Below are positions 826 to 27,066 of a stretch of 32,000 nt of DNA, one piece after another. A model generated the notes under the pieces. That model was given only the letters and a program-made list of their open reading frames with translations. It was not told the DNA's origin and ran no database searches. Made by a program: the position numbers and the translations under genes. The DNA lies in contig JBJLBP010000001.1 of the NCBI GenBank assembly GCA_045568075.1, positions 1 through 32,000 on the forward strand, given 5' to 3'. The first letter of the stretch is position 1; each line of letters opens with the position of its first letter. Source of the stretch: Candidatus Thalassarchaeaceae archaeon (GTDB lineage Archaea; Thermoplasmatota; Poseidoniia; Poseidoniales; Thalassarchaeaceae).

Positions 826-1128
826 TCACTCTTCGTTTCCGAAGTTGAGCCAGAATTCATTGATTGCACTCGGATTCCGTATTACCATCTGCCCTACGTA
901 TAGCAGGTAAGCAGCTAGTGGAAGGTATAGCCCGAGTATCGTTGGATGGGGTCCAATCGTGAACAATGGAAGTGAGTAAGCAATCATCGGCATCAGAAGC
1001 CATGGAATCGGACCTCGATTCTTTGCAAAAATCATGACAGGATAACCCAAACCGCAACCGAGAAGGAAAAGACCAACGAAGGTCAACGTAATGTCCATCA
1101 GTTGCTCAGATGGGCGTCGGGATTTCAA
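826..1128 (-). CDS. Small polytopic membrane protein, function unknown
   Basis: 100-aa ORF with 3 hydrophobic helices. TTG start at 1128 overlaps the stop of the upstream permease; an alternative ATG is at 1098. No recognisable motif. Confidence 0.45.
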   Translation of the reverse strand: MKSRRPSEQLMDITLTFVGLFLLGCGLGYPVMIFAKNRGPIPWLLMPMIAYSLPLFTIGPHPTILGLYLPLAAYLLYVGQMVIRNPSAINEFWLNFGNEE

Positions 1129-2111
1129 TGCTGGCTAGATTTCTCAAGAGGCTGGGCTGGCGGTGCGAGGAAGATCAGTGCAATTCCGCTGCCAACAATC
1201 AGCAAGCCGCCCGCCCAATCAGACAGCGCCAGCGCCTCATCGAACAGGAAGAATCCGTAGGCGGTGGCAACGATTACCGTGAGGTAAGAGAAAGCGCTGA
1301 CCCAAGCAGCGTTGGCTTTGTGGTAAGCCATCGTTATCCCAACCTGACCTCCTCCTGCTCCGATACCAATTCCGACCAAAGCCGCGATTGTATTAGTTTC
1401 AAGAGTGAACAAAGCCGGAGCTGCCTGAACAATCGAACCGGCTACGGAAAATGCCGCGAACCAGAAAACTACTGAAGCAGCAGAATCGGTCTTTCGCAGC
1501 TCGCGCACGTAGATGTAAGCTAGCGCTGCGAAAAAGCCCGAGCCGAGCGCTAGTAATGCGTCCGGCTCGACTCCACTCAAATTTGGAGAGACGATGAGAA
1601 CGATACCACCGAATGCGGTGATAACGAGTGCCGCAACTGCTGGTGAGACTTTTTCGGCGATTATGCGACCGGAGAGCAGTGCAACGAATAGTGGGGCTGT
1701 ATACTGCAATGTCACGGCTTGTCCAATCGGAATCCGAGCCAGCGCCGAGAAATACAAAATCATCGCAGTCAGGCCAACCGCACAACGTAGAAACATTGTC
1801 TTGGGGTCGTTCATCTTCAATGAAATTCCTCGACTCGCAGCGAAGACAGCGACTGCGAATGCAATCACTGCTGAGCGAACCAGAATCACAACCCAGACAT
1901 CGACACCATCGAGTCCACTGGTGTACTTCACGAGGGCGTTCATCGTCCCGAAACAGATACTGCCGAAGATCATCCACAACACAGCGGCATTGGGCGAATC
2001 CGCTCCGATCTCCGATTCATTTTCAGATTCAACAAATGAACTCAGATCAGGCCCCTCGCCACTTGCCTCAGCAATATCGGCGAGACTTCGCCCGAGCCCG
2101 CGCTTAGCCAA
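1125..2111 (-). CDS. EamA/DMT-family permease with an about 45-aa N-terminal extension carrying a ParB-like peptide (AKRGLGRSLADI)
   Basis: 328-aa ORF, about 10 Gly/Ala-rich TM helices typical of EamA transporters. The ORF begins at TTG 2111, immediately after and in frame with the parA TGA. Alternative starts at codons 44-47 (GTG/TTG/ATG) would delete the extension. Confidence 0.8.
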   Translation of the reverse strand: MAKRGLGRSLADIAEASGEGPDLSSFVESENESEIGADSPNAAVLWMIFGSICFGTMNALVKYTSGLDGVDVWVVILVRSAVIAFAVAVFAASRGISLKMNDPKTMFLRCAVGLTAMILYFSALARIPIGQAVTLQYTAPLFVALLSGRIIAEKVSPAVAALVITAFGGIVLIVSPNLSGVEPDALLALGSGFFAALAYIYVRELRKTDSAASVVFWFAAFSVAGSIVQAAPALFTLETNTIAALVGIGIGAGGGQVGITMAYHKANAAWVSAFSYLTVIVATAYGFFLFDEALALSDWAGGLLIVGSGIALIFLAPPAQPLEKSSQH

Positions 2112-3065
2112 TCAGAGCAGCCCCCAGCGAGCCTCGAGTACGCTTGCCACTTCCTGGTAGTCCTGGCCGCCGTTGCTCTTGGGGTCGTGGAGGTGAATGG
2201 GGATGCCGTGGCTTGGGGCCTCAGCCAGTTTGATATTACGCCGTACAGAGGGTTCGATGACGAGTTCTGGGAAGGCTTCCTTGACCTCTGCTGCAACCTG
2301 TTGATTGAGCAAGGTTGGAGCGTGCATAGTGAGCATCACACCGTCCACACCGAGCCGCGGGTTGAGGAGGCCTCGGACCTCGCGGATCGTACCTGCAAGC
2401 ATGGCGAGTCCTTCGAGTGCAAAATACTCGGTCTGGACTGGGATTACTATGCCGTCACTGGCTACCAGTGCGTTGATTGTGACGAGTCCGAGGGATGGTG
2501 GTGTGTCGATGATGACGAGGTCATAATGAGGTAAGAGTGGAGCTAATGCTTCGGTTAATCGGCGCTCTCTGCCAAGTTGTCTGAGCATCTCCTGTTCTAG
2601 ACCGACGAGGGTTCGATCGCCGACGATAATGTGGACATTGTCGACTGCTGTCGCGTGACGGCTGTCGACCGCACATTCTGGGTTCAGCATGAGGTCACGC
2701 GTAGTAGTTCGTACTCGGGATTTGTCGACGCCGAGTCCGGTTGCACAATTTCCTTGAGAGTCGGCGTCGATGACGAGGACTCGGTGACCGCGAAGAGCAA
2801 TCTGAGCTGCGATATTGATGACGCTCGTGGTCTTACCAACTCCACCTTTCTGATTGATTACAGTCACTACACGTGCTCGACCTTCAGGTGTTTCTGGACC
2901 CCTTGGAAGGTCGAGTGGTTGCCTCGCGCGGGCGGTACTGATTTCATCAACCGCGTCGAGTGAGGGTAATCCACGGTCCTCCTCAACCTCAACGAAATCA
3001 GCATCGATGATGAGCGGAGCAGCGCCCACTTCGGGCAATTCGTCCCGCTCTTCATCGAGTGTCAT
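2112..3065 (-). CDS. parA: ParA/Soj-family partition ATPase with an acidic about 65-aa N-terminal extension
   Basis: Deviant Walker A NQKGGVGKTT, IDADSQGN, DLVIIDTPPSLG, and Soj-like length and C-terminus. ATG start at 3065. Confidence 0.9.
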   Translation of the reverse strand: MTLDEERDELPEVGAAPLIIDADFVEVEEDRGLPSLDAVDEISTARARQPLDLPRGPETPEGRARVVTVINQKGGVGKTTSVINIAAQIALRGHRVLVIDADSQGNCATGLGVDKSRVRTTTRDLMLNPECAVDSRHATAVDNVHIIVGDRTLVGLEQEMLRQLGRERRLTEALAPLLPHYDLVIIDTPPSLGLVTINALVASDGIVIPVQTEYFALEGLAMLAGTIREVRGLLNPRLGVDGVMLTMHAPTLLNQQVAAEVKEAFPELVIEPSVRRNIKLAEAPSHGIPIHLHDPKSNGGQDYQEVASVLEARWGLL

Positions 3066-3164: not shown

Positions 3165-5429
3165 TCAGTTAGGCGCCCAATAATGGAACCAACCAAGCAT
3201 CTGAGCGTTCTCTGCATCCATCGCGAAAGTCACAGTATGTTCGCGATTATTGCTATCGGTCCAAGTCTTATCTGCACCAACACTGACTGCACCTTGGCCG
3301 ATACTGACCGGAACGATGTCGAAGATATCATTCTCCTCGGTCACAGTAAGCCGATATCCATACTCGACATCGTCCGCCCACTCGCCCGATCCATCGTTGA
3401 TATATTGGCTCAAAACGGGGTATCGAGAGCTTGTCAGAAGTCTAGACTCGAGAGCCTGCATGGTCAAAGTATCAGGGATTGCGTTGCGATTCCATTGCAC
3501 TGACCCATCGTCCATATCTTCGTCATCGATGAGTACGCAACCTCCGTCTCGCTCGCGTACAACGGTCCAACCTGCTCGCTCATCCTCAGTCACCCAGGAC
3601 ATGTTCCACTGCGATGTTCCAGAGACTAGGACTGTCGAGGCCTTCCAGACATATCCACCGGCCTCGATGGCGGTGGCCACACCGCTCGATGAGTAATTGG
3701 CCACCGTACATTCCAGCGCCGATTCAAGATCCCAGTCACGTTGCTGGCTCTCATCAGGCATTGCTACTCCCCAAGAACGCTGGGCGCTGGTTCCGGGCCG
3801 GTCTTCACCAGGCCCGGGCTTGCTTGTGTAATCCGCCAACCAATCGATTGCGCGCTCGCCGTTATCATTGCTCGTCGCGCGCATCGAGAAAGAAATCGTC
3901 ACCCTTCCATCAGGTAGAGCCGCATCGGAGAGCGAGGATTCAATCAGTCCGCACTCGCTCGATTTCTGACTTTTGTCGAGTACGATACTCGCATCTTGCT
4001 GCACTGGCCACGGCACGCTGCTCTTGACTAGCAAATCCAAGTTGAGGTGCCCATTGCAGGCATCAAATTCAGGATGCGACATCGAGATCGGATAGACGAG
4101 ACCATGGACTCCGTCATTGATCTCTTCACCAACAGACCAAGACCACTCATCACCATCAGCCGAGGTTGAACCGGAGGTCAGTGAGGCATCGCCAAAGAAT
4201 TCGTGCAAATCTAGAGGTGTCAAGGGAAGCAAAACGTAGGAAGTGGCAACTCCTAATCCCGAAATCGAATCGAGCCCAAAGGTCGTCGCTTCAAGATTCG
4301 TAGCGCGGTTATCGACATCGCGAATCGTCAAGTCTGTGCTCGTTCGAATCAGCTGCTTATCGCCGATATCTGTCCAAGTCAGCGTCGTCATATCGACGTT
4401 ATTATCCTCAAGAATCCAACCTGTATTACCGCATTCGTCGGTACTTCTCCAAGTCTTTCCATCGAGGTCAATATTCATCGAATGAGTAAGGACTTTTTCA
4501 GCGGCGAGATGACTTCTACCATAAGCGTCCAAAGCGCTTACTGCGCCGATGTATTGTTGGTCTGAGGGGTGGATAATTTCACTTGATGAACCCCCCCGAA
4601 TACTGATACTTCCAGAGCCTGAAGTGATGTCTGCTGTGAGCTCGCCGCAGGCATCATCGAGTGCTCCTCCTGCGGCGTTTCGGAATATCGCAACCATGTC
4701 GTCACCCTCTACCTGGATGCTCGAGGTTCCGATGTTGAATTGCATGCTGTCTCCATAATGGAGGCTTCGCGCTTCGAAGGATGAGTCCTGTTGCAGGAAC
4801 AGGGCGAAGCCGATGGCACCGATAATTAGTGCAACAATAGTGACGGCGCCGATGACCTTCGGTGAGAGCTCAATCGAAGATAGGCTTGGGATGGTGATGG
4901 TGATCGATGCCTCTGAATCGACTTCAGGCACGATTTCGTCAGCGACGAGAGTCGTCGCTCCCTCTTCGGCTAGAACACCGTCAGTCCAAGGGTCATCATC
5001 CTCTTCTTCGAGGATAAGCGCGGGAGTCTCTTCCTCGAGGATGATTGTATCGACCACATCAGGCTCGACTGCAAGGACTTCCTCAGGCGCGGGTGGTTCT
5101 TCGATTTCGGCCTCTATGATATCGGCTTCGAAGACCTCGGCCTCGAGCACATCGGGTTCTGAATCCTCGTCGATTGCCGGCTCGGAATCAGGTATTCCAC
5201 CGCCGCCGGCTTCGACTCGAGCCAACAGACGATCTATCGCGTCGCCCCTTCCTTCGTCAGAAGTTGGTAATTTCTTACTTGGCTCGGCAATCGGAGAAGA
5301 ACTCTCCTCGCCGAGCAATCGGTCGATCAGTTCGGTCTTATTCCCCGATACGAAGAGTCCGTTCTCCTTGCAGAGTTCCCGCAGTTCGGATACCTTCATC
5401 GCCGATAGTGAATCACGGTCCAGACACAT
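3165..5429 (-). CDS. SAP-domain single-pass membrane protein with a large extracytoplasmic domain, function unknown
   Basis: 754-aa ORF. The N-terminus MKVSELRELCKENGLFVSGNKTELIDRLLG fits the SAP / Rho_N-like helix-extended-helix DNA-binding motif. An about 150-aa acidic linker, one TM helix (VIGAVTIVALIIGAIGFALFL) and an about 540-aa domain with no recognised motif follow. Confidence 0.7.
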   Translation of the reverse strand: MCLDRDSLSAMKVSELRELCKENGLFVSGNKTELIDRLLGEESSSPIAEPSKKLPTSDEGRGDAIDRLLARVEAGGGGIPDSEPAIDEDSEPDVLEAEVFEADIIEAEIEEPPAPEEVLAVEPDVVDTIILEEETPALILEEEDDDPWTDGVLAEEGATTLVADEIVPEVDSEASITITIPSLSSIELSPKVIGAVTIVALIIGAIGFALFLQQDSSFEARSLHYGDSMQFNIGTSSIQVEGDDMVAIFRNAAGGALDDACGELTADITSGSGSISIRGGSSSEIIHPSDQQYIGAVSALDAYGRSHLAAEKVLTHSMNIDLDGKTWRSTDECGNTGWILEDNNVDMTTLTWTDIGDKQLIRTSTDLTIRDVDNRATNLEATTFGLDSISGLGVATSYVLLPLTPLDLHEFFGDASLTSGSTSADGDEWSWSVGEEINDGVHGLVYPISMSHPEFDACNGHLNLDLLVKSSVPWPVQQDASIVLDKSQKSSECGLIESSLSDAALPDGRVTISFSMRATSNDNGERAIDWLADYTSKPGPGEDRPGTSAQRSWGVAMPDESQQRDWDLESALECTVANYSSSGVATAIEAGGYVWKASTVLVSGTSQWNMSWVTEDERAGWTVVRERDGGCVLIDDEDMDDGSVQWNRNAIPDTLTMQALESRLLTSSRYPVLSQYINDGSGEWADDVEYGYRLTVTEENDIFDIVPVSIGQGAVSVGADKTWTDSNNREHTVTFAMDAENAQMLGWFHYWAPN

Positions 5430-5642
5430 CCCTCCTGCTCATCGAACGCTCGGCAGTCTCGCGGCGGGGCTTTCAACCCCTTCGGCGTTCCGCTTTGCGG
5501 AACGCGGATACGCACGCGTGCGAGAGACCGCCGAAACCGTCTGAAACACTGCGATTAGGGGGATTCTGGAGCGGAGAAGTTGATGATGCAGAATCAAGGT
5601 CCAGCCGTCAGACTCAAGAACGGTTGGCGGTCGGCCGCAGAT

Positions 5643-6596
5643 ATGGACCCACGCTTGGTCATCCTCTCACGCGGCCCGAGGTTGTACTCGACGCGACGTC
5701 TCGCCGAGGAGGCGGAGAAGGCTGGTTGGGCAGTACGGATTCTCGACCCATTGTCTCTGACTGTGGTTGTCGATGAGAAGGGAGGTCGCATCTTCCACCG
5801 CGGCTGGCCAGTCGAGTGCGAAGCAGTGATTCCACGAATCGGATATTCGATCACGCGCCGCGGTGTCGCCATAGTCAGACAATTCGAGCAGATGGGAGTA
5901 ATCATCCTCAATCCATCTCTTTCGATTCAACAAAGCCGAGACAAGTTGCTTGCCAGCCAATTGATGGCCGACGCGGGCGTTCCAATTCCAGTCACTGCGC
6001 ACGTGGCTTCCATCGAGGACACCGACCGCGCCATCGCGCGCGCTGGTGGTGTACCTTGCGTGGTCAAGGCTACAGAAGGCACGCAGGGTTCGGGTGTCTT
6101 CCTTGTCGATAATCACCAGCAGGCTCACCAACTCGTGCAACAGATGCTCGAGCGAGGAATGCGCCCGTTGGTTCAGACCTATATCGAGGAATCACACGGT
6201 CAGGATATTCGAGTTTTCGTGGTCGGTGGTAAGGTAACCGCCGCTATGCGACGCCGTGCTTCCGGTAGTGAATTCCGCTCTAATTTCCATTTGGGAGGTC
6301 GCGTCGAGCGCGTCCATCTCAGTGAGCTACACAAATCTGTCGCGCTCGCTGCAGCCAATATTCTAGGAATGGATATCGCGGGTGTAGACATGCTTGAATC
6401 CCGCGATGGTCCTCTCGTCCTCGAAGTCAACTCAAGTCCAGGACTCGAGGGTATCGAGGGCGCCTCGGGCGTCAATGTCGCAGCAGCCGTAGCCCAGCAC
6501 CTCGACGCGCGCCTATCTGCAGTCCGCGAACAAAGCCGCGCTGAGGCGCAGTTGCCCGATGATACAGCGCCGGACAACACTCTGCTAACAGAGTGA
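5643..6596 (+). CDS. rimK: RimK-family ATP-grasp alpha-L-glutamate ligase
   Basis: The N-terminus RLVILSRGPRLYSTRRLAEEA matches RimK N-termini. ATP-grasp motifs are present (VVKATEGTQGSGV, DIAGVDMLES...LEVNSSPG). I chose the ATG at 5643; the ORF track starts at 5580. Confidence 0.85.
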   Translation: MDPRLVILSRGPRLYSTRRLAEEAEKAGWAVRILDPLSLTVVVDEKGGRIFHRGWPVECEAVIPRIGYSITRRGVAIVRQFEQMGVIILNPSLSIQQSRDKLLASQLMADAGVPIPVTAHVASIEDTDRAIARAGGVPCVVKATEGTQGSGVFLVDNHQQAHQLVQQMLERGMRPLVQTYIEESHGQDIRVFVVGGKVTAAMRRRASGSEFRSNFHLGGRVERVHLSELHKSVALAAANILGMDIAGVDMLESRDGPLVLEVNSSPGLEGIEGASGVNVAAAVAQHLDARLSAVREQSRAEAQLPDDTAPDNTLLTE

Positions 6597-6810
6597 AATC
6601 GACTCAAATCCAAGTTTTTGGAACTTCAGAGTCGAGCCGTATGGCTCCATCAAAAATCGCCCATACGGCGATTCCAAGCACGCCCACAAACCGGAGCCGA
6701 ACGGCTCGCAGCATCAGAAGCATTCAAGTCGGGATAGACCCACTTGGGTTCGCCCGTATGGGCAGGGATGCACCCGTCGTTCGCGACGGAGAGAGGCGAG
6801 GGAACGCGAT

Positions 6811-7917
6811 ATGGAAAGTGATGATGGAGGGTTTGCTGGCCGAGAGGCTAGGCAGGGGCGGTTCGATACTTCCTCCATTCAATCGGTTCTTCCCACACGC
6901 TTGATCCGCTTAGCCGCACTTCCTTGGTTCGAATGCTGGACCGGACAATTGCGCGCTGAGAAGAAATCGCAACATACGATTCGCGCTTACACGGTGGCAG
7001 CGCGCGGGTTTTCGACAACTGCGCTACCGGATGAGGATGAAATTGATTGGAATGAAGCTCAAACGATTCCTGTCCGTATTTTCTATGAGCGCGCTGATCC
7101 TTCCTTCGGTCGCATCGATTCTTGGTTGAACGGGCTTGGTGAGATGCGACCGGCTACGATTAACGCTAGAATTGCAGCCGTTTCTCATCTGATGAAATGG
7201 CTTGGACATTCAATTCCAGAGTGGGTGCAGAGGCCGGCGCGCAGGCGCCCTCTACCGCGACCTTTGGGCCGGTCAGAGGTGCTCAAAGTGCGCTCCGCGG
7301 CTCTGAGAATGGAAGACCCGTTAGCTCATCCTGTAGTCACTACAATGCTAGACACTGGCTTGCGGGTCTCCGAATTATGCAATCTCGACCTCGACGATGT
7401 CGATCACGATGACCTGTCTGCTTTGGTGATTGGAGGCAAGGGTGAGAAGGATCGGACTGTGCTCTTCACGAAGTCTACTACTGAGGCTATTATGGCTTGG
7501 AATCCAATTCGTGCTCTTCGTTCGAATCTCATCGATGACGAGGATTCCGAGCGATCGCTATTCTTGTCGAGTCGCGGTCGAAGAATCAATCCGCGCTCGA
7601 TTCAGAAATTGATTGATAGATTGGCCGATGAGGCTGATATCCCGCGCTCTCGTTTGTCTCCCCACACTCTACGCCACACATTTGCTACCGGTTTACTGGA
7701 GCGTGGGGCTGATTTGGTGACTATTCAGCGCTTATTGGGTCACGCTAGCATCGCTACTACTCGCGTGTATCTGGAGATTAGTGACCAGACGCTGCGAGAG
7801 ATCTACCACAGGGCACAGCGTCTGCCGGAATTGGCCGAGTTTGAGGTTGATTCCACAGTCGAGAATGAATTGGAAAGCGAATTAATCGAAGCACCACCTA
7901 CAATTCGCCAAGATTGA
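6811..7917 (+). CDS. xerA: Tyrosine recombinase, XerC/XerD/XerA-like
   Basis: The C-terminal catalytic region reads LSPHTLRHTFATGLLERGADLVTIQRLLGHASIATTRVYLE (R..HxxR..Y), with a SAM-like N-domain. The symbol rests on the archaeal context only. Confidence 0.8.
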   Translation: MESDDGGFAGREARQGRFDTSSIQSVLPTRLIRLAALPWFECWTGQLRAEKKSQHTIRAYTVAARGFSTTALPDEDEIDWNEAQTIPVRIFYERADPSFGRIDSWLNGLGEMRPATINARIAAVSHLMKWLGHSIPEWVQRPARRRPLPRPLGRSEVLKVRSAALRMEDPLAHPVVTTMLDTGLRVSELCNLDLDDVDHDDLSALVIGGKGEKDRTVLFTKSTTEAIMAWNPIRALRSNLIDDEDSERSLFLSSRGRRINPRSIQKLIDRLADEADIPRSRLSPHTLRHTFATGLLERGADLVTIQRLLGHASIATTRVYLEISDQTLREIYHRAQRLPELAEFEVDSTVENELESELIEAPPTIRQD

Positions 7918-13725: not shown

Positions 13726-16038
13726 ATGAAGAGAAAGACATTGATTACGCGCAGCATGGTAGCATTGATTCTAATCTCAGTCGCAATGGTGGTTTCACCT
13801 GCGGTCAATTCCTTACCGACCGGTGTAGGTGGTACTGGAATTCAGACTAGCGGCTGTAATTGCCACGCAGCTGCACCAACTGCAACCATCGACGTTACAC
13901 TCGATGGTTTTCCAGATCAGTATAATGCGTCTGAGACTTACACCATCACCGTCTCATTCGAAGGTGGACCCCCCGAATCCGGAGTCAACTCCGGCGGATT
14001 CAACCTCTGGGCATCCGGTGGAGAATTCGCCGTTATCGATGCTACCGTGCAGTCGCGAGCGACTGCAGAGGTTACGCACACAGAAGTGGGTAATGACTAC
14101 CGAACTTGGACAATGGAATGGATCGCTCCAAGCCACGGTCGAAATGTCGACTTCATTCTTCACGTCAATTCGGTGAATGGAGACGGCTCGAATAGTGGAG
14201 ACTCGTGGAATCGCCTCGACCTCTCCGTCGCCGGCTCTCTTGGAGTCGGCTTGGATCCTGCTGACCCATTCACAGTACTGGCGACCCTGATTATCATCTC
14301 CGGTGTCCTTCTTGTCATCACAATTCTCTACGGATTCTACCGCACCAATCCGGACGCCTTCGATTGGGAACATCTCGGCCCATGGATTACCGAATGGTTG
14401 ACCAGCACCGACCACAAGAAGATTGGAACTCTTTACTTCGTCCAAGGTCTCTTCTTCCTCGGAATCGGCGGAATTCTAGCGATGATGATTCGCTTACAAC
14501 TCGCAGGGCCTGAAATGGGCTTCATCTCACAGGATCAATACAACCAATTCTTCACGCTGCACGGAACTACGATGATCTTCCTCGCCGCAATGCCGCTAAT
14601 CAACGGCTTTGCCAATTGGATTGTGCCACTGCAAATTGGCGCGCCTGACCTCGCTCTCCCGAGAATCAACGCTCTCTCATTCTGGCTGCAACCATTCGCT
14701 GCTTTGCTCATCTTCACTGGTGTCTTCTCCGGCCAAGGAGCCGATACCGGCTGGACCGGATATGCACCATACGTGGTCAGCGCAGGCGCGCACTCGGGCG
14801 TGACGATGTGGGTTGCTGGACAAATAATGCTGGTAGCATCATCGACGCTGACTGGAATCAATTTCCTGACCACGATGGCTGTCATGCGCGCCGAAGGGAT
14901 GGGTTGGATGCAGATGCCTCTGTTCACTTGGTCTATCCTTGTCGCAAATCTGATGCTCTTCCTCTCAATCCCTGCCTTCGGTATCGGTCTACTCCAAGTC
15001 TATCTTGATCGGACTATCTCGACGGCATTCTACGATATCGCCGCCGGCGGTGATCCATTACTGTGGAGTCACCTATTCTGGTACTTTGGTCACCCTGAGG
15101 TGTACGTGGTTATCGTGCCGGCCTTCGGCGTGATATCTGAGGTTCTTGCGACCTCGGCCCGCCGCTCAATTTTCGGATACCGTTCGATGGTCTATGCAAT
15201 GGCAGGAATTGGGATTGTCGCTTTCATCGTCTACGGCCACCACATGTTCACCTCTGGAATGTCTCCAAGCCTTCGATTCGTTACCATGCTCACAACCATG
15301 CTCGTCGCAGTTCCGACAGGAATCAAGATTTTCAATTGGCTGAAGACGATGCATGGAGGCTCGCTGGTCTATCGTACGCACACATTGTGGGCTCTAGGAT
15401 TCCTCGTGACATTCACTCTCGGTGGAATCTCTGGAATGTTCTTCCCATCGATTGCAATGGACACGCACCTACACGAGACTTACTTCGTTGTCGCCCACTT
15501 CCACTATGTGTTGGTCGGCGGAACCGTCTTCGGATTCTTCGCCGCAATTTACTACTGGTATCCGAAGATGACCGGACGAATGCTAGATGAGAGACTTGGA
15601 ACTCTCCACTTCTTGACCGCATTCGTCACTTACAACGGCATCTTCTGGCCAATGCACCGCCTCGGTGTCATTGGCATGCCGCGCCGAACTCACACTTACT
15701 TCATCACCACAGATGATTTCACCAATCTACCAGAATGGGCTGCAGACTGGAACCTATTCATCTCTGTCTGCGCCTTCTTGTTCTTCTTCTCGAACTTCAT
15801 TATGGTCTTCAATATGCTAATCAGCCTCGTGCGTGGGCAGAAGGCACCAGCTGATCCATGGGGTGGCTGGTCATTCGAGTGGATGACATCCTCGCCCCCT
15901 CCAACACCTTCCTTTGACTGGAACAACCTGCCAGTGCTGAAGGATGCCAATGAGCACATCGCACACGAACCGAGCACTATAGGAATCTGGTTCAACAAAT
16001 TGATGGTTCCTGAAGACGAGGAGGAGGTGAGCAATTGA
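13726..16038 (+). CDS. coxA: Heme-copper oxidase subunit I fused to an N-terminal extracytoplasmic domain plus an extra TM helix
   Basis: From about aa 213 the sequence is canonical: WLTSTDHKKIGTLY, FFTLHGTTMIF, WYFGHPEVYV, GHHMFT. Aa 1-210 hold a signal peptide, an about 150-aa Ser/Thr/Gly-rich domain with CNCH, and one TM helix. Confidence 0.95.
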   Translation: MKRKTLITRSMVALILISVAMVVSPAVNSLPTGVGGTGIQTSGCNCHAAAPTATIDVTLDGFPDQYNASETYTITVSFEGGPPESGVNSGGFNLWASGGEFAVIDATVQSRATAEVTHTEVGNDYRTWTMEWIAPSHGRNVDFILHVNSVNGDGSNSGDSWNRLDLSVAGSLGVGLDPADPFTVLATLIIISGVLLVITILYGFYRTNPDAFDWEHLGPWITEWLTSTDHKKIGTLYFVQGLFFLGIGGILAMMIRLQLAGPEMGFISQDQYNQFFTLHGTTMIFLAAMPLINGFANWIVPLQIGAPDLALPRINALSFWLQPFAALLIFTGVFSGQGADTGWTGYAPYVVSAGAHSGVTMWVAGQIMLVASSTLTGINFLTTMAVMRAEGMGWMQMPLFTWSILVANLMLFLSIPAFGIGLLQVYLDRTISTAFYDIAAGGDPLLWSHLFWYFGHPEVYVVIVPAFGVISEVLATSARRSIFGYRSMVYAMAGIGIVAFIVYGHHMFTSGMSPSLRFVTMLTTMLVAVPTGIKIFNWLKTMHGGSLVYRTHTLWALGFLVTFTLGGISGMFFPSIAMDTHLHETYFVVAHFHYVLVGGTVFGFFAAIYYWYPKMTGRMLDERLGTLHFLTAFVTYNGIFWPMHRLGVIGMPRRTHTYFITTDDFTNLPEWAADWNLFISVCAFLFFFSNFIMVFNMLISLVRGQKAPADPWGGWSFEWMTSSPPPTPSFDWNNLPVLKDANEHIAHEPSTIGIWFNKLMVPEDEEEVSN

Positions 16039-26086: not shown

Positions 26087-27066
26087 CCGCGCATCCGCTC
26101 GAAATGAGTGAATTAGCTGGCCAACGAGTCGCGGTCGATGTCTTTCTCAATGCCTACCAATTCATCACCAGCCTAGTTGGCCAAGATGGCAAGCCTTTGT
26201 CCTTCAATGGACGTCCTGTGGCTCACCTGATGGGTTTTCTCGACCGAGCATCTTGGATGCTCGAACAGGGGATCGAACCAGTCTTCGTTTTCGACGGACG
26301 CCCGCACGAACTCAAACTCGATACTTTGGCTGGCCGCAAAGAGCGCAAAGTGGATGCTGTCTCCAAGTGGGAGGCGGCCGTCGAGATAGGTGACATGGCG
26401 CTAGCCAAGAAACTCGGACCTCAGACTGCTGAATATACCCGCGACATGGTCGCCGAAACCAAGCGATTGTTCGACTGTCTCGGCCTTGTTTGGGTCGAAG
26501 CTCCCATGGAAGCCGAAGGTGCAGGCGCTGTGCGTTGTGCCAATGGTGAGGTCGCAGCGGTAGCTAGTCAGGACTGGGACACGCTGCTATATGGCTCGCC
26601 AGTAATGATTCGTAATCTGACGAGCCACGGCCGACGCAAGTTCGGCCGACTAGTAACAGCTGAGAAAGTCGTCCTACAGGAATTACTCGACGAGCACGAA
26701 ATAACCCGAGAACAGCTCGTCGATCTCGCCATCATGATCGGTACCGATTTTCACCCCGGAATCCGTGGAATTGGCCCGAAGACCGGTCTCAAACTGATTC
26801 GGGAGCACGTTACAATGGAGGCCGTCGCCGAGGTCAAAGAATTCGATATGCCTGAGGATATCGAAACCATTCGCGGACTATTCCTCAATCATCCAATTCA
26901 TCCTGAGCCGCTAGCACAGGCCACCCGCGCGAACGAGACTGCCTTGCGCGAATTTTTGCAAGGCGAGTGCGGCTTCTCGGATCGTCGACTCGAACGAGCA
27001 CTCGAGCGGTTGGCCGCAGCCAACCACCTGAAATCTGACAATCAACCGACTCTATTCGATTTCTGA
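26059..27066 (+). CDS. fen: Flap endonuclease 1 (archaeal FEN-1)
   Basis: MGCNLRDL...LAGQRVAVDVFLNAYQF, GIEPVFVFDGRPHELK and H3TH GIRGIGPKTGLKLI. GGAGG lies about 10 nt upstream of the ATG at 26059. Confidence 0.9.
   Translation: MGCNLRDLATAHPLEMSELAGQRVAVDVFLNAYQFITSLVGQDGKPLSFNGRPVAHLMGFLDRASWMLEQGIEPVFVFDGRPHELKLDTLAGRKERKVDAVSKWEAAVEIGDMALAKKLGPQTAEYTRDMVAETKRLFDCLGLVWVEAPMEAEGAGAVRCANGEVAAVASQDWDTLLYGSPVMIRNLTSHGRRKFGRLVTAEKVVLQELLDEHEITREQLVDLAIMIGTDFHPGIRGIGPKTGLKLIREHVTMEAVAEVKEFDMPEDIETIRGLFLNHPIHPEPLAQATRANETALREFLQGECGFSDRRLERALERLAAANHLKSDNQPTLFDF

Follow-up and report, generated by a model that had tools for sequence, protein, structure and literature searches.

A candidate membrane-tethered ParA-interaction peptide on a DMT permease encoded directly after a Soj-type parA gene in Marine Group II archaea

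Why would a membrane transporter encoded immediately behind a parA gene begin with what resembles the first residues of a ParB protein? The question is raised by a 32,000-nucleotide stretch of DNA from Candidatus Thalassarchaeaceae archaeon (JBJLBP010000001.1, positions 1-32,000, forward strand; hereafter the window), whose source group is Marine Group II (Poseidoniales, family Thalassarchaeaceae, MGIIb). In this window, the gene of a Soj-type ParA ATPase is followed by that of an EamA/DMT permease, the opening residues of which read (M)AKRGLGRSLADI. Spatial order in bacterial and archaeal cells is chiefly the work of ParA/MinD ATPases, and it is the partner that defines each of these enzymes. 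Here, the ParB activation peptide appears detached from the rest of ParB and carried by a polytopic membrane transporter, an arrangement conserved across much of Marine Group II. The comparative analyses described below favour, with room left for doubt, a real interaction between ParA and this N-terminal tail, which would make the tail a membrane-tethered ParA-interaction peptide. The features concerned, all on the minus strand, are as follows.

2112..3065, minus strand: parA, encoding a Soj-type ParA ATPase of 317 residues (Pfam, solved relatives)
2112..2114, minus strand: TGA stop codon of parA, abutting the permease start (sequence, list of open reading frames)
2109..2111, minus strand: TTG start codon of the permease (list of open reading frames)
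1125..2111, minus strand: open reading frame (ORF) of the EamA/DMT permease, 328 residues (ORF list, Pfam)
2070..2108, minus strand: motif 1, residues 2-14 (AKR-GLGRSL-ADIA), ParB-type ParA-binding motif (alignments, comparison with ParB)
2031..2054, minus strand: motif 2, residues 20-27 (GPDLSSFV) (alignment)
2001..2030, minus strand: acidic variable linker, residues 28-37 (composition, predicted local distance difference test, pLDDT)
1125..2000, minus strand: EamA/DMT permease body, residues 38-328, with 10 transmembrane (TM) helices, and the stop codon (Pfam, AlphaFold2)

The two ORFs of the window are contiguous and in the same frame. The minus-strand junction reads ...CTG CTC TGA(2114-2112) TTG(2111-2109) GCT AAG CGC GGG CTC GGG CGA AGT CTC GCC GAT ATT, so that both the stop/TTG junction and the peptide sequence are exactly as given in the original prediction. 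Layout and tail were analysed in 89 related loci. The order of SAP-domain membrane protein, Soj-type ParA and permease was kept in every one of them (89/89), and the permease started between -4 and +3 nucleotides (nt) from the stop of the Soj-type parA in all loci; the junctions were ATGA, GTGA or TAATG overlaps, abutments without a gap, gaps of +1 nt or single spacer codons. The peptide is thus located where a parB would start, as had been proposed, and the permease gene is adjacent to and co-oriented with the ATPase gene, as expected of a partner of a ParA/MinD ATPase. More distant EamA relatives (at most 47% identity; P0124 and P0126) carried no tail and did not adjoin parA.

The contiguous frame had also suggested that read-through of the TGA might yield a ParA-permease fusion. 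The ORFs are in frame and abutting in the window, and the same frame was found in 18 of the 40 loci with an automatically resolved junction; the remaining 22 were out of frame (-4 or -1 nt overlap, or +1 nt gap), and the parA stop was TAA in 16, TAG in 13 and TGA in 11 loci. A proper start codon was present at the same position, always four codons ahead of the motif, and was mostly ATG (ATG 31, TTG 5, GTG 4). Because the frame is not conserved, read-through is not supported and is considered very improbable, and the in-frame TGA of the window is incidental, since both frame and stop codon differ between loci. The conserved trait of the junction is tight, and probably translationally coupled, expression rather than frame. 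The C-terminal tip of ParA, R-W-G-L-(L/I) (window 2112-2126, minus strand), was near-invariant with or without the tail, and the codons of the R-W-G-L tip give a GGGG run about 10 nt ahead of the permease start, which could serve as a Shine-Dalgarno site in coupled translation.

All permease homologues were marine, and those with names came from Thermoplasmatota, Methanobacteriota or Poseidoniales archaea. Scanning GTDB with a single genome for each species gave 80 loci, 79 of which were titled Poseidoniales/Marine Group II or unclassified Thermoplasmatota, Methanobacteriota or Euryarchaeota archaea; the family and genus names among them were Thalassarchaeaceae, Thalassarchaeum and MGIIb, and the locus closest to the window was 98% identical. 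A complete archaeal SAP-ParA-permease block with a tail was also seen in a metagenome-assembled genome labelled Acidiferrobacter sp. (L032, NZKZ01000064.1), which is probably a mis-binned MGIIb contig.

How is the tail built, and is it kept as a protein? The 43 residues preceding TM1 of the window permease read M/L-AKRGLGRSLADIAEASGEGPDLSSFVESENESEIGADSPNAA and are followed by TM1 (VLWMIFG...). This two-part tail was encoded in 57 of the 89 loci, which bears out the extension foreseen in the original prediction; the TGA, which was to be checked together with it, was not conserved, nor was the frame. The consensus of motif 1 comprises the start and three residues, often K/R-rich, followed by GLGRGL-x-(E/D)-(I/V/M), and its onset was always at residue 5 of the permease. 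Motif 2, (G/A)P(D/N)LS(S/G)(F/Y)(V/I), followed at a fixed spacing of 9-10 residues. The two motifs occurred together in 57 loci, and neither was found in the other 32. Residues G5, L6, G7, R8 and L10 did not vary in alignment A1 (15 sequences) and hardly varied in the wider alignments A2 and A4, and position 13 was aliphatic; P21, L23, S24 and F26 of motif 2 were invariant or nearly so. The linker that follows varied from 6 to 12 residues, with 42 in one locus, and was acidic (118 D+E versus 30 K+R summed over the 57 tail-bearing loci). It led into an invariant D-S-P...A-V-x-W-M entry into TM1, in which D38, P40 and A43 were invariant. The motif was conserved among orthologues down to 55% overall identity (P0123). 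Synonymous codons at the conserved residues varied freely: L6/L10 used six Leu codons, R8 used five Arg codons, and S24 drew on TCN as well as AGY. The use of all these synonymous codons at fixed residues indicates that the tail is translated and that the target of selection is the protein rather than a signal in RNA or DNA.

The same alignments bear on the possibility that translation begins at codons 44-47 (GTG, TTG or ATG), with the 43 upstream codons serving as an untranslated spacer. The annotated TTG is a weak start codon, and gene callers set some orthologue starts downstream, as in the short homologue P0006. That start was miscalled, however, as the DNA of P0006 encodes the full tail after TGA-GTG. 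The residues upstream of codon 44 (5-8, 10, 21-26 and D38/P40) were invariant or nearly so as amino acids while their codons turned over, an ATG in most orthologues lay four codons before the motif, and a start at codon 44 or later would drop the invariant D38/P40/A43 segment before TM1. A downstream start, which had been left open in the original prediction, is hardly credible. On this comparative evidence, the read-through fusion and the downstream start were both rejected.

Several further observations were made on the tail. The window motif reads GLGRSL, with Ser at position 9, where most orthologues have GLGRGL; this Ser codon (window 2085-2087, minus strand) was shared with the nearest relatives L007 and L009 and occurred independently in L042. 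The GLGRSL variant, together with deletion of the whole tail in the sister clade Thalassarchaeum O1, may reflect relaxed constraint in this part of the tree. The linker was expanded to about 42 residues with HTEHTEHTE repeats in L006 (4833-5000) and L010 (30-260), in which both motifs were retained, indicating that linker length is free. The N-terminal tryptic peptide of the tail is GLGR / SLADIAEASGEGPDLSSFVESENESEIGADSPNAAVLW... An NCBIfam scan of six tails at E-values up to 10 gave no match, and a scan of viral contigs with motif 2 alone as the pattern gave 16 pattern matches, none of which was confirmed.

Is motif 1 a ParB motif? The ParA-binding motif of Myxococcus xanthus ParB comprises residues 11-19, L-G-R-G-L-x-x-L-I, of which L11, L15, L18 and I19 are needed for ParA binding; the central R13, a K in about half of chromosomal ParBs, is needed for ATPase stimulation, and a 20-residue peptide suffices to stimulate ParA when DNA is present (PMC12462528). 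Helicobacter pylori ParB starts with MAKNKVLGRG, and its L7 and R9 contact ParA (PMC11229316). Real ParB N-termini that were retrieved read KKRGLGRGLDALL or GRRGLGRGLSALL, the Pseudomonas ParB N-terminus being MAAKKRGLGRGLDALL and that of Caulobacter ...EGRRGLGRGLSALL. Orthologue tails read (K/R)-x-GLGRGL-x-(E/D)-(I/V), and seven consecutive residues, RGLGRGL, were common to the archaeal tails and real ParBs. The tail residues L6, R8, L10 and I/V/M13 were in register with L11, R13, L15 and L18 of M. xanthus ParB, and the ParB pattern of aliphatic residues flanking a central R/K was found in the tail as GLGR(S/G)L-x-x-I at residues 5-13. A hidden Markov model (HMM) of the ParB N-terminus was built from real Pseudomonas and Caulobacter ParBs, and N-termini from the same loci together with tail-less EamA proteins served as controls. 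The window peptide scored 10.7 bits and the tail-bearing N-termini had a median of 10.7 (range 0.3-17.8), compared with 6.5 bits for the best of 2,057 motif-free controls; only tail-bearing permeases scored above 6.5 bits. The resemblance to a ParB N-terminus that had been noted for the window peptide is thus borne out, and it extends to the orthologues.

The resemblance ends with the peptide. Real ParBs carry PF02195, PF17762 and PF23552 (Pfam); in the permease, Pfam gave EamA only, with no ParB/Srx N-terminal CTP-binding domain (PF02195), and neither a parS-binding helix-turn-helix (HTH; PF17762) nor a ParB C-terminal dimerisation domain was found. As had been stated before, no ParB body is encoded in the window, since no ParB/Srx or ParB-HTH domain was detected by Pfam in the 26 substantial ORFs scanned, and no cognate ParB was found among the called genes, or by Pfam, in the 32-kb window or in the flanks of 91 related loci. 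The protein is therefore not a ParB, but a DMT permease bearing only the ParB activation motif.

Pfam matched the 328-residue ORF to EamA (E-value 5.6e-19) in two stretches, beginning at residue 43, and source annotations of the orthologues read 'DMT family transporter'. An AlphaFold2 model built on a 50-sequence alignment gave 10 TM helices with a predicted template modelling score of 0.72, in agreement with an EamA/DMT protein of two EamA repeats. Residues 1-37 had pLDDT values below 50 and were not docked onto the transporter, with a short helix at residues 10-16 only, as would be expected for a short linear motif whose target is another protein. The K/R-rich loops were loops 2, 4, 6 and 8, from which the N-terminus is predicted to be cytoplasmic. 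When tail and ParA were modelled as an artificial single chain without an alignment, the mean pLDDT was 33.6.

Is the neighbouring ATPase a suitable partner for such a peptide? The 317-residue ORF matched AAA_31 in Pfam (E-value 1.7e-52), with matches also to the CbiA, MipZ and ParA families, and its nearest solved relatives were M. xanthus ParA (8RAY, E-value 5.8e-58), Thermus thermophilus Soj (1WCV, E-value 6.1e-51) and H. pylori Soj. It has a deviant Walker A motif with the signature lysine, QKGGVGKTT, as in ParA/Soj proteins. Its residues were mapped through an ungapped HMMER alignment to 8RAY, in which the M. xanthus number equals the window number minus 42, and the mapping was checked at the D60A site. 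The mapped residues are given below.

M. xanthus L150-G151-L152 (contact loop): window L192-G193-L194, conserved
M. xanthus L192: window L234, conserved
M. xanthus L155: window I197, conservative
M. xanthus V116: window Q158, differs
M. xanthus L187: window E229, differs
M. xanthus R238 (DNA binding): window K279, basic residue retained
M. xanthus E82 (Arg site): window D124, retained
M. xanthus E117 (Arg site): window E159, retained
M. xanthus Y81 (Arg site): window R123, differs
M. xanthus D110 (Arg site): window T152, differs

The residue at position 279 was R or K in all orthologues, so that a basic residue is retained at the position used for non-specific DNA binding elsewhere (R238 in M. 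xanthus, R189 in Bacillus subtilis). Judged by these matches, the ATPase belongs to the Soj (chromosomal) type, the kind of partner that would match a ParB-like peptide. It also has an acidic N-terminal extension of about 62 residues (window 2880-3065, minus strand) with conserved APLIIDADFVEVE and PL(D/E)LP motifs, which were retained with or without the tail.

What became of ParA when the tail was lost? On a tree built by neighbour joining from the cores of ParA and the permease, the same proteins as were tested, the tail was lost about five times (parsimony needs five changes), in about a third of lineages, and both halves were always lost together. The tail-bearing state is that of the majority and is likely ancestral for most of the family. 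The five tail-less groups were a large clade (clade A) with degenerate N-termini such as MGELASRGTGHVAPNDSPR; Thalassarchaeum O1, sister to the clade of the window, with a clean deletion (TGA-GT-ATG-TCT...); L068; L043, L073 and L080; and a deep clade (L087 and L091) labelled Thalassarchaeaceae, in which the motif was found in none of 119 protein clusters. Tail-less forms whose DNA was checked, such as P0004 in L005, were true deletions; a 299-302-residue tail-less form (P0029/P0034) is known from protein alone.

Co-variation was analysed with 55 tail-bearing and 31 tail-less ParAs. ParA residues L194, I197, L233, L234 and D294 were invariant in all 55 of the former, and this five-residue set was altered in 25 of the 31 latter, in all five loss clades. 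Residue 194, which corresponds to M. xanthus L152, one of two essential contact residues (PMC12462528), changed 7 times on tail-minus branches and not once on tail-plus branches, which make up 67% of the tree length. With all ParA columns taken together, tail-minus branches held 31.6% of the changes, equal to their share of branch length, indicating that the relaxation is local to the pocket; no global acceleration of ParA evolution was found. Of 143 columns invariant in tail-plus ParAs, 18 varied in tail-minus ParAs, and direct pocket residues accounted for 3 of these 18 (out of 7; Fisher P = 0.043), the wider pocket set defined a priori for 5 (out of 14; Fisher P = 0.018). Besides residue 194 and D294, no ParA column had 0 changes on tail-plus branches and at least 3 on tail-minus branches. 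Both the direction and the location of this signal are as a physical contact between tail and pocket would predict. D294 (HLHDPKS; window 2184-2186, minus strand) lies outside the published ParB pocket, and three independent tail-less clades had N, K, Q or E in its place; since it is acidic, was altered only after tail loss, and the equivalent of Y81 is an Arg, it is a candidate contact for the tail arginine. The ParA of the tail-less locus L052, for example, has I194, V197 and E294.

These results can be set against the view that the tail is a relic, in which an acquired parAB had its parB displaced by the permease gene and the first codons survive with no function related to ParA, persisting for another reason such as aiding membrane insertion or keeping the coupled start site. 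The bacterial Soj-like character of ParA, the location of the tail exactly at the parB start position, its deletion or degradation about five times with neither ParA nor permease lost, and a deep Thalassarchaeaceae clade entirely devoid of it (0/119 protein clusters) all agree with a relic. On the other hand, the residues were kept under free synonymous change down to 55% identity, their spacing and N-terminal position were fixed, and the ParA pocket residues were invariant only where the tail exists. A neutral remnant would decay, as seen in clade A (MGELASRGTGHVAPNDSPR), and the start coupling persisted in tail-less lineages, which indicates that coupling is independent of the tail. A relic is therefore quite unlikely as a description of the present tail. 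Of the two readings offered in the original prediction, a parB fossil and a membrane-tethered ParA partner, the first is retained as a plausible origin, namely a transferred parAB operon with parB displaced, and does not describe the present state given the selection on residues and the co-variation of the pocket; the second fits better with protein-level selection, a cytoplasmic disordered tail and the pocket co-variation.

Several points nevertheless weigh against a ParA-interaction peptide. The fourth hydrophobic position, I19 in M. xanthus ParB, was not fixed in the tail, where A, Y, S or T occurred, and motif 2 had no counterpart in ParB. Generic profile searches of PDB and NCBIfam with the peptide retrieved no ParB, and the tail profile (alignment A2) against all PDB sequences likewise gave none, the best match being an unrelated Listeria protein (E-value 0.043); these null results are attributed to the motif being too short, with about 10 informative residues, for generic HMM statistics. 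On the side of ParA, two pocket positions (Q158 and E229) and two positions of the arginine site (R123 and T152) differ from M. xanthus. The pocket changes after tail loss were conservative (L to I, I to V, L to F) and the column-level statistics moderate (P about 0.02-0.04). ParA, permease and SAP protein were intact in all tail-less groups, and the loss of the tail about five times with ParA kept indicates that the tail is dispensable and that ParA has a role independent of it. Finally, single ParB peptides stimulate ParA more than 10-fold less than juxtaposed pairs (PMC12462528), and by analogy one tail per permease may be insufficient.

Some of these points would fit instead with a tail that serves a different partner or autoregulates the transporter, its likeness to ParB being convergent or coincidental. 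Motif 2 matched motif 1 in conservation, the site at which M. xanthus ParA accommodates the ParB arginine was altered (Y81 being R123), and the peptide profile searches retrieved no ParB. One possibility of this kind is that motif 2 is the core and recruits PCNA or a division protein. The L-x-x-F-hydrophobic spacing of motif 2 was also observed in QPTLFDF, the PIP (PCNA-interacting peptide) box that ends the FEN1 of the window (about 27043-27063, plus strand), and resembles that of FtsZ C-terminal peptides as well; the spacing shared with the FEN1 PIP box also speaks for such a partner. Motif 1, however, matched ParB over seven residues (RGLGRGL) at the right N-terminal position beside a Soj-type parA and co-varied with the ParB pocket of ParA, and AlphaFold2 left the tail undocked from the transporter. 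Another partner in place of ParA is accordingly judged unlikely. The two views are compatible in that motif 2 may recruit a second partner in addition to ParA.

How would a ParA-interaction peptide on a permease work? The Soj-type ParA, translationally coupled to the permease, would bind ATP, dimerise and sit on nucleoid DNA. Motif 1 (L6, R8, L10 and I13) would adopt a short helical form within the ParB pocket on the ParA dimer's edge, formed in the window protein by L192-G193-L194, I197 and L233-L234, and the tail, like the ParB peptide, would promote ATP hydrolysis and the release of ParA. With the peptide hung from a membrane protein by a short acidic linker, the outcome would be a transient link between nucleoid-bound ParA and the membrane, consumed by ATP hydrolysis. 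Its cellular role could be to position or segregate the nucleoid, or else to position (evenly distribute) the permease or to place transport under cell-cycle control.

The first gene of the three-gene block is relevant to this role. It encodes a SAP-domain membrane protein of 754 residues and, wherever a related locus reached far enough, was located directly upstream of parA. The protein has an N-terminal SAP DNA-binding domain, an acidic linker, one TM segment and a C-terminal domain of about 530 residues, which gave no Pfam match and is presumably external; its N-terminus is acidic, with no ParB-like basic peptide. A membrane-anchored SAP (DNA-binding) protein is unusual for an archaeon. The SAP protein and the permease, whose genes flank parA, are both predicted to direct a nucleoid-oriented module into the cytoplasm, and the block looks like a nucleoid-membrane coupling or positioning module without ParB-parS, because the SAP membrane protein has a cytoplasmic DNA-binding domain. 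A more far-reaching scenario, rather doubtful at present, is that MGIIb cells segregate or position their nucleoid with this ParB-less and parS-less module: a horizontally acquired Soj-type ParA would coat the nucleoid, the two flanking proteins would contact it from the membrane, the SAP protein by binding DNA and the permease by binding ParA and turning it over with a captured ParB activation peptide, motif 2 might recruit a replication or division factor, and the chromosome would be partitioned through ATP-dependent nucleoid-membrane tethers with no centromere complex. Motif 2, the conserved SAP protein and the repeated tail loss all go beyond the original prediction.

Are there precedents for such a partner? 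Like the tail, the bacterial ParB motif lies at the extreme N-terminus in a disordered region, in the product of a gene directly after a Soj-type parA, with the core L-G-(R/K)-G-L-x-x-aliphatic, basic residues just upstream and conserved hydrophobic pocket residues in ParA. Unlike in ParB, the peptide is carried here by a 10-TM DMT permease and not by a ParB/Srx-HTH CTPase clamp that binds parS, a second motif (GPDLSSFV) is present, and the fourth hydrophobic position is variable; closure of the ParB clamp juxtaposes two peptides, to which ParB owes its efficiency, and this has no obvious equivalent in the permease. The closest archaeal precedent is HpaA/HpaB of Haloferax volcanii, a two-gene unit with a few-nt overlap in which a ParA of bacterial origin is followed by a non-ParB partner proposed to contact ParA via a short N-terminal helix (bioRxiv 10.1101/2025.11.19.689047). 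HpaB is a soluble ribbon-helix-helix DNA-binding protein that binds a centromere on a secondary chromosome, in contrast to the integral membrane transporter described here; HpaA is closer to MipZ/McdA than to Soj (bioRxiv 10.1101/2025.11.19.689047), and the present peptide differs in being ParB-like at the sequence level.

PomX, McdB and TlpT/ParP (PMC11407121, PMC10241942, PMC7993993) are likewise ATPase-adjacent partners or cargos with a short, positively charged N-terminal peptide that engages and stimulates the ATPase, and the cargo is positioned through ATPase turnover on the nucleoid. In the papers retrieved, the cargos described are cytoplasmic assemblies, polar landmarks or DNA, and their peptides are not ParB-like in sequence. 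Noc of B. subtilis, a ParB paralogue that recruits DNA to the membrane (PMC4331003), is similar in concept, in that a ParB-derived N-terminus brings DNA and membrane together. Noc retains the ParB body and itself binds DNA, and its N-terminus is reported to bind the membrane directly, whereas here the permease supplies the membrane anchor and ParA is the proposed target of the N-terminus. No description of a polytopic transporter with a ParA-engaging peptide, nor of ParA/ParB in Poseidoniales, was found in the literature searched.

That partners of ParA/MinD ATPases engage the ATPase by an N-terminal peptide is already familiar from PomX, McdB and TlpT, to which the tail is likened by analogy. 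What would be new, as far as can be read from sequence, is the polytopic transporter as carrier, the ParB sequence identity in an archaeon, the second motif and the conserved pairing with a SAP membrane protein. If ParA indeed binds the tail, the ParB motif of about 10 residues would be a movable module, open to transfer onto unrelated proteins in the course of evolution, and the permease would be the first membrane-embedded ParA partner. If the ParB-less module also holds, it would represent a new class of ParA system in which all that is left of 'ParB' is a peptide borne by a transporter. To our knowledge, Marine Group II has no cultured representative, and the block would offer an entry point to DNA organisation and segregation in uncultured archaea that show no ParB at the locus. 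Marine Group II is described as the most abundant group of planktonic archaea in ocean surface waters (PMC6461757). Nature has already supplied a comparative experiment, in that the tail was lost repeatedly and the pocket relaxed to match, and the claim is amenable to a synthetic peptide and recombinant ParA without culturing the organism.

The remaining features of the window referred to here are as follows.

3165..5429, minus strand: SAP-domain membrane protein, 754 residues, first gene of the three-gene block (Pfam SAP, E-value 4.8e-11)
826-1128, minus strand: hydrophobic ORF of 100 residues directly downstream of the permease, with a 4-nt overlap at the permease stop (no Pfam match)
5580-7917, plus strand: RimK-type ATP-grasp ligase and tyrosine recombinase, divergent from the SAP-parA-eamA block
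13726-16038, plus strand: cytochrome oxidase subunit I ORF, 770 residues, in a COX2-COX1-COX3 operon (COX1 domain from residue 232)

Genes of 88-91 residues like the 826-1128 ORF followed the permease in L005 and L006 and were not seen in more distant loci, where the gene after the permease lies on the other strand. Across the GTDB loci and further metagenomic loci, the tyrosine recombinase and RimK were encoded on one strand and the SAP protein, ParA and permease on the other, and this divergent arrangement was kept in every locus long enough to show it. Recombinases of the XerA-like type, to which we take the tyrosine recombinase to belong, resolve chromosome dimers in other archaea, and a recombinase type known for this function thus adjoins the ParA module. 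The remaining genes of the window are housekeeping genes, including the cox operon, FEN1, RibD, RsmB, an Lrp/AsnC regulator and others. In the cytochrome oxidase subunit I ORF, the onset of the COX1 domain at residue 232 indicates an N-terminal extension or fusion of about 230 residues.

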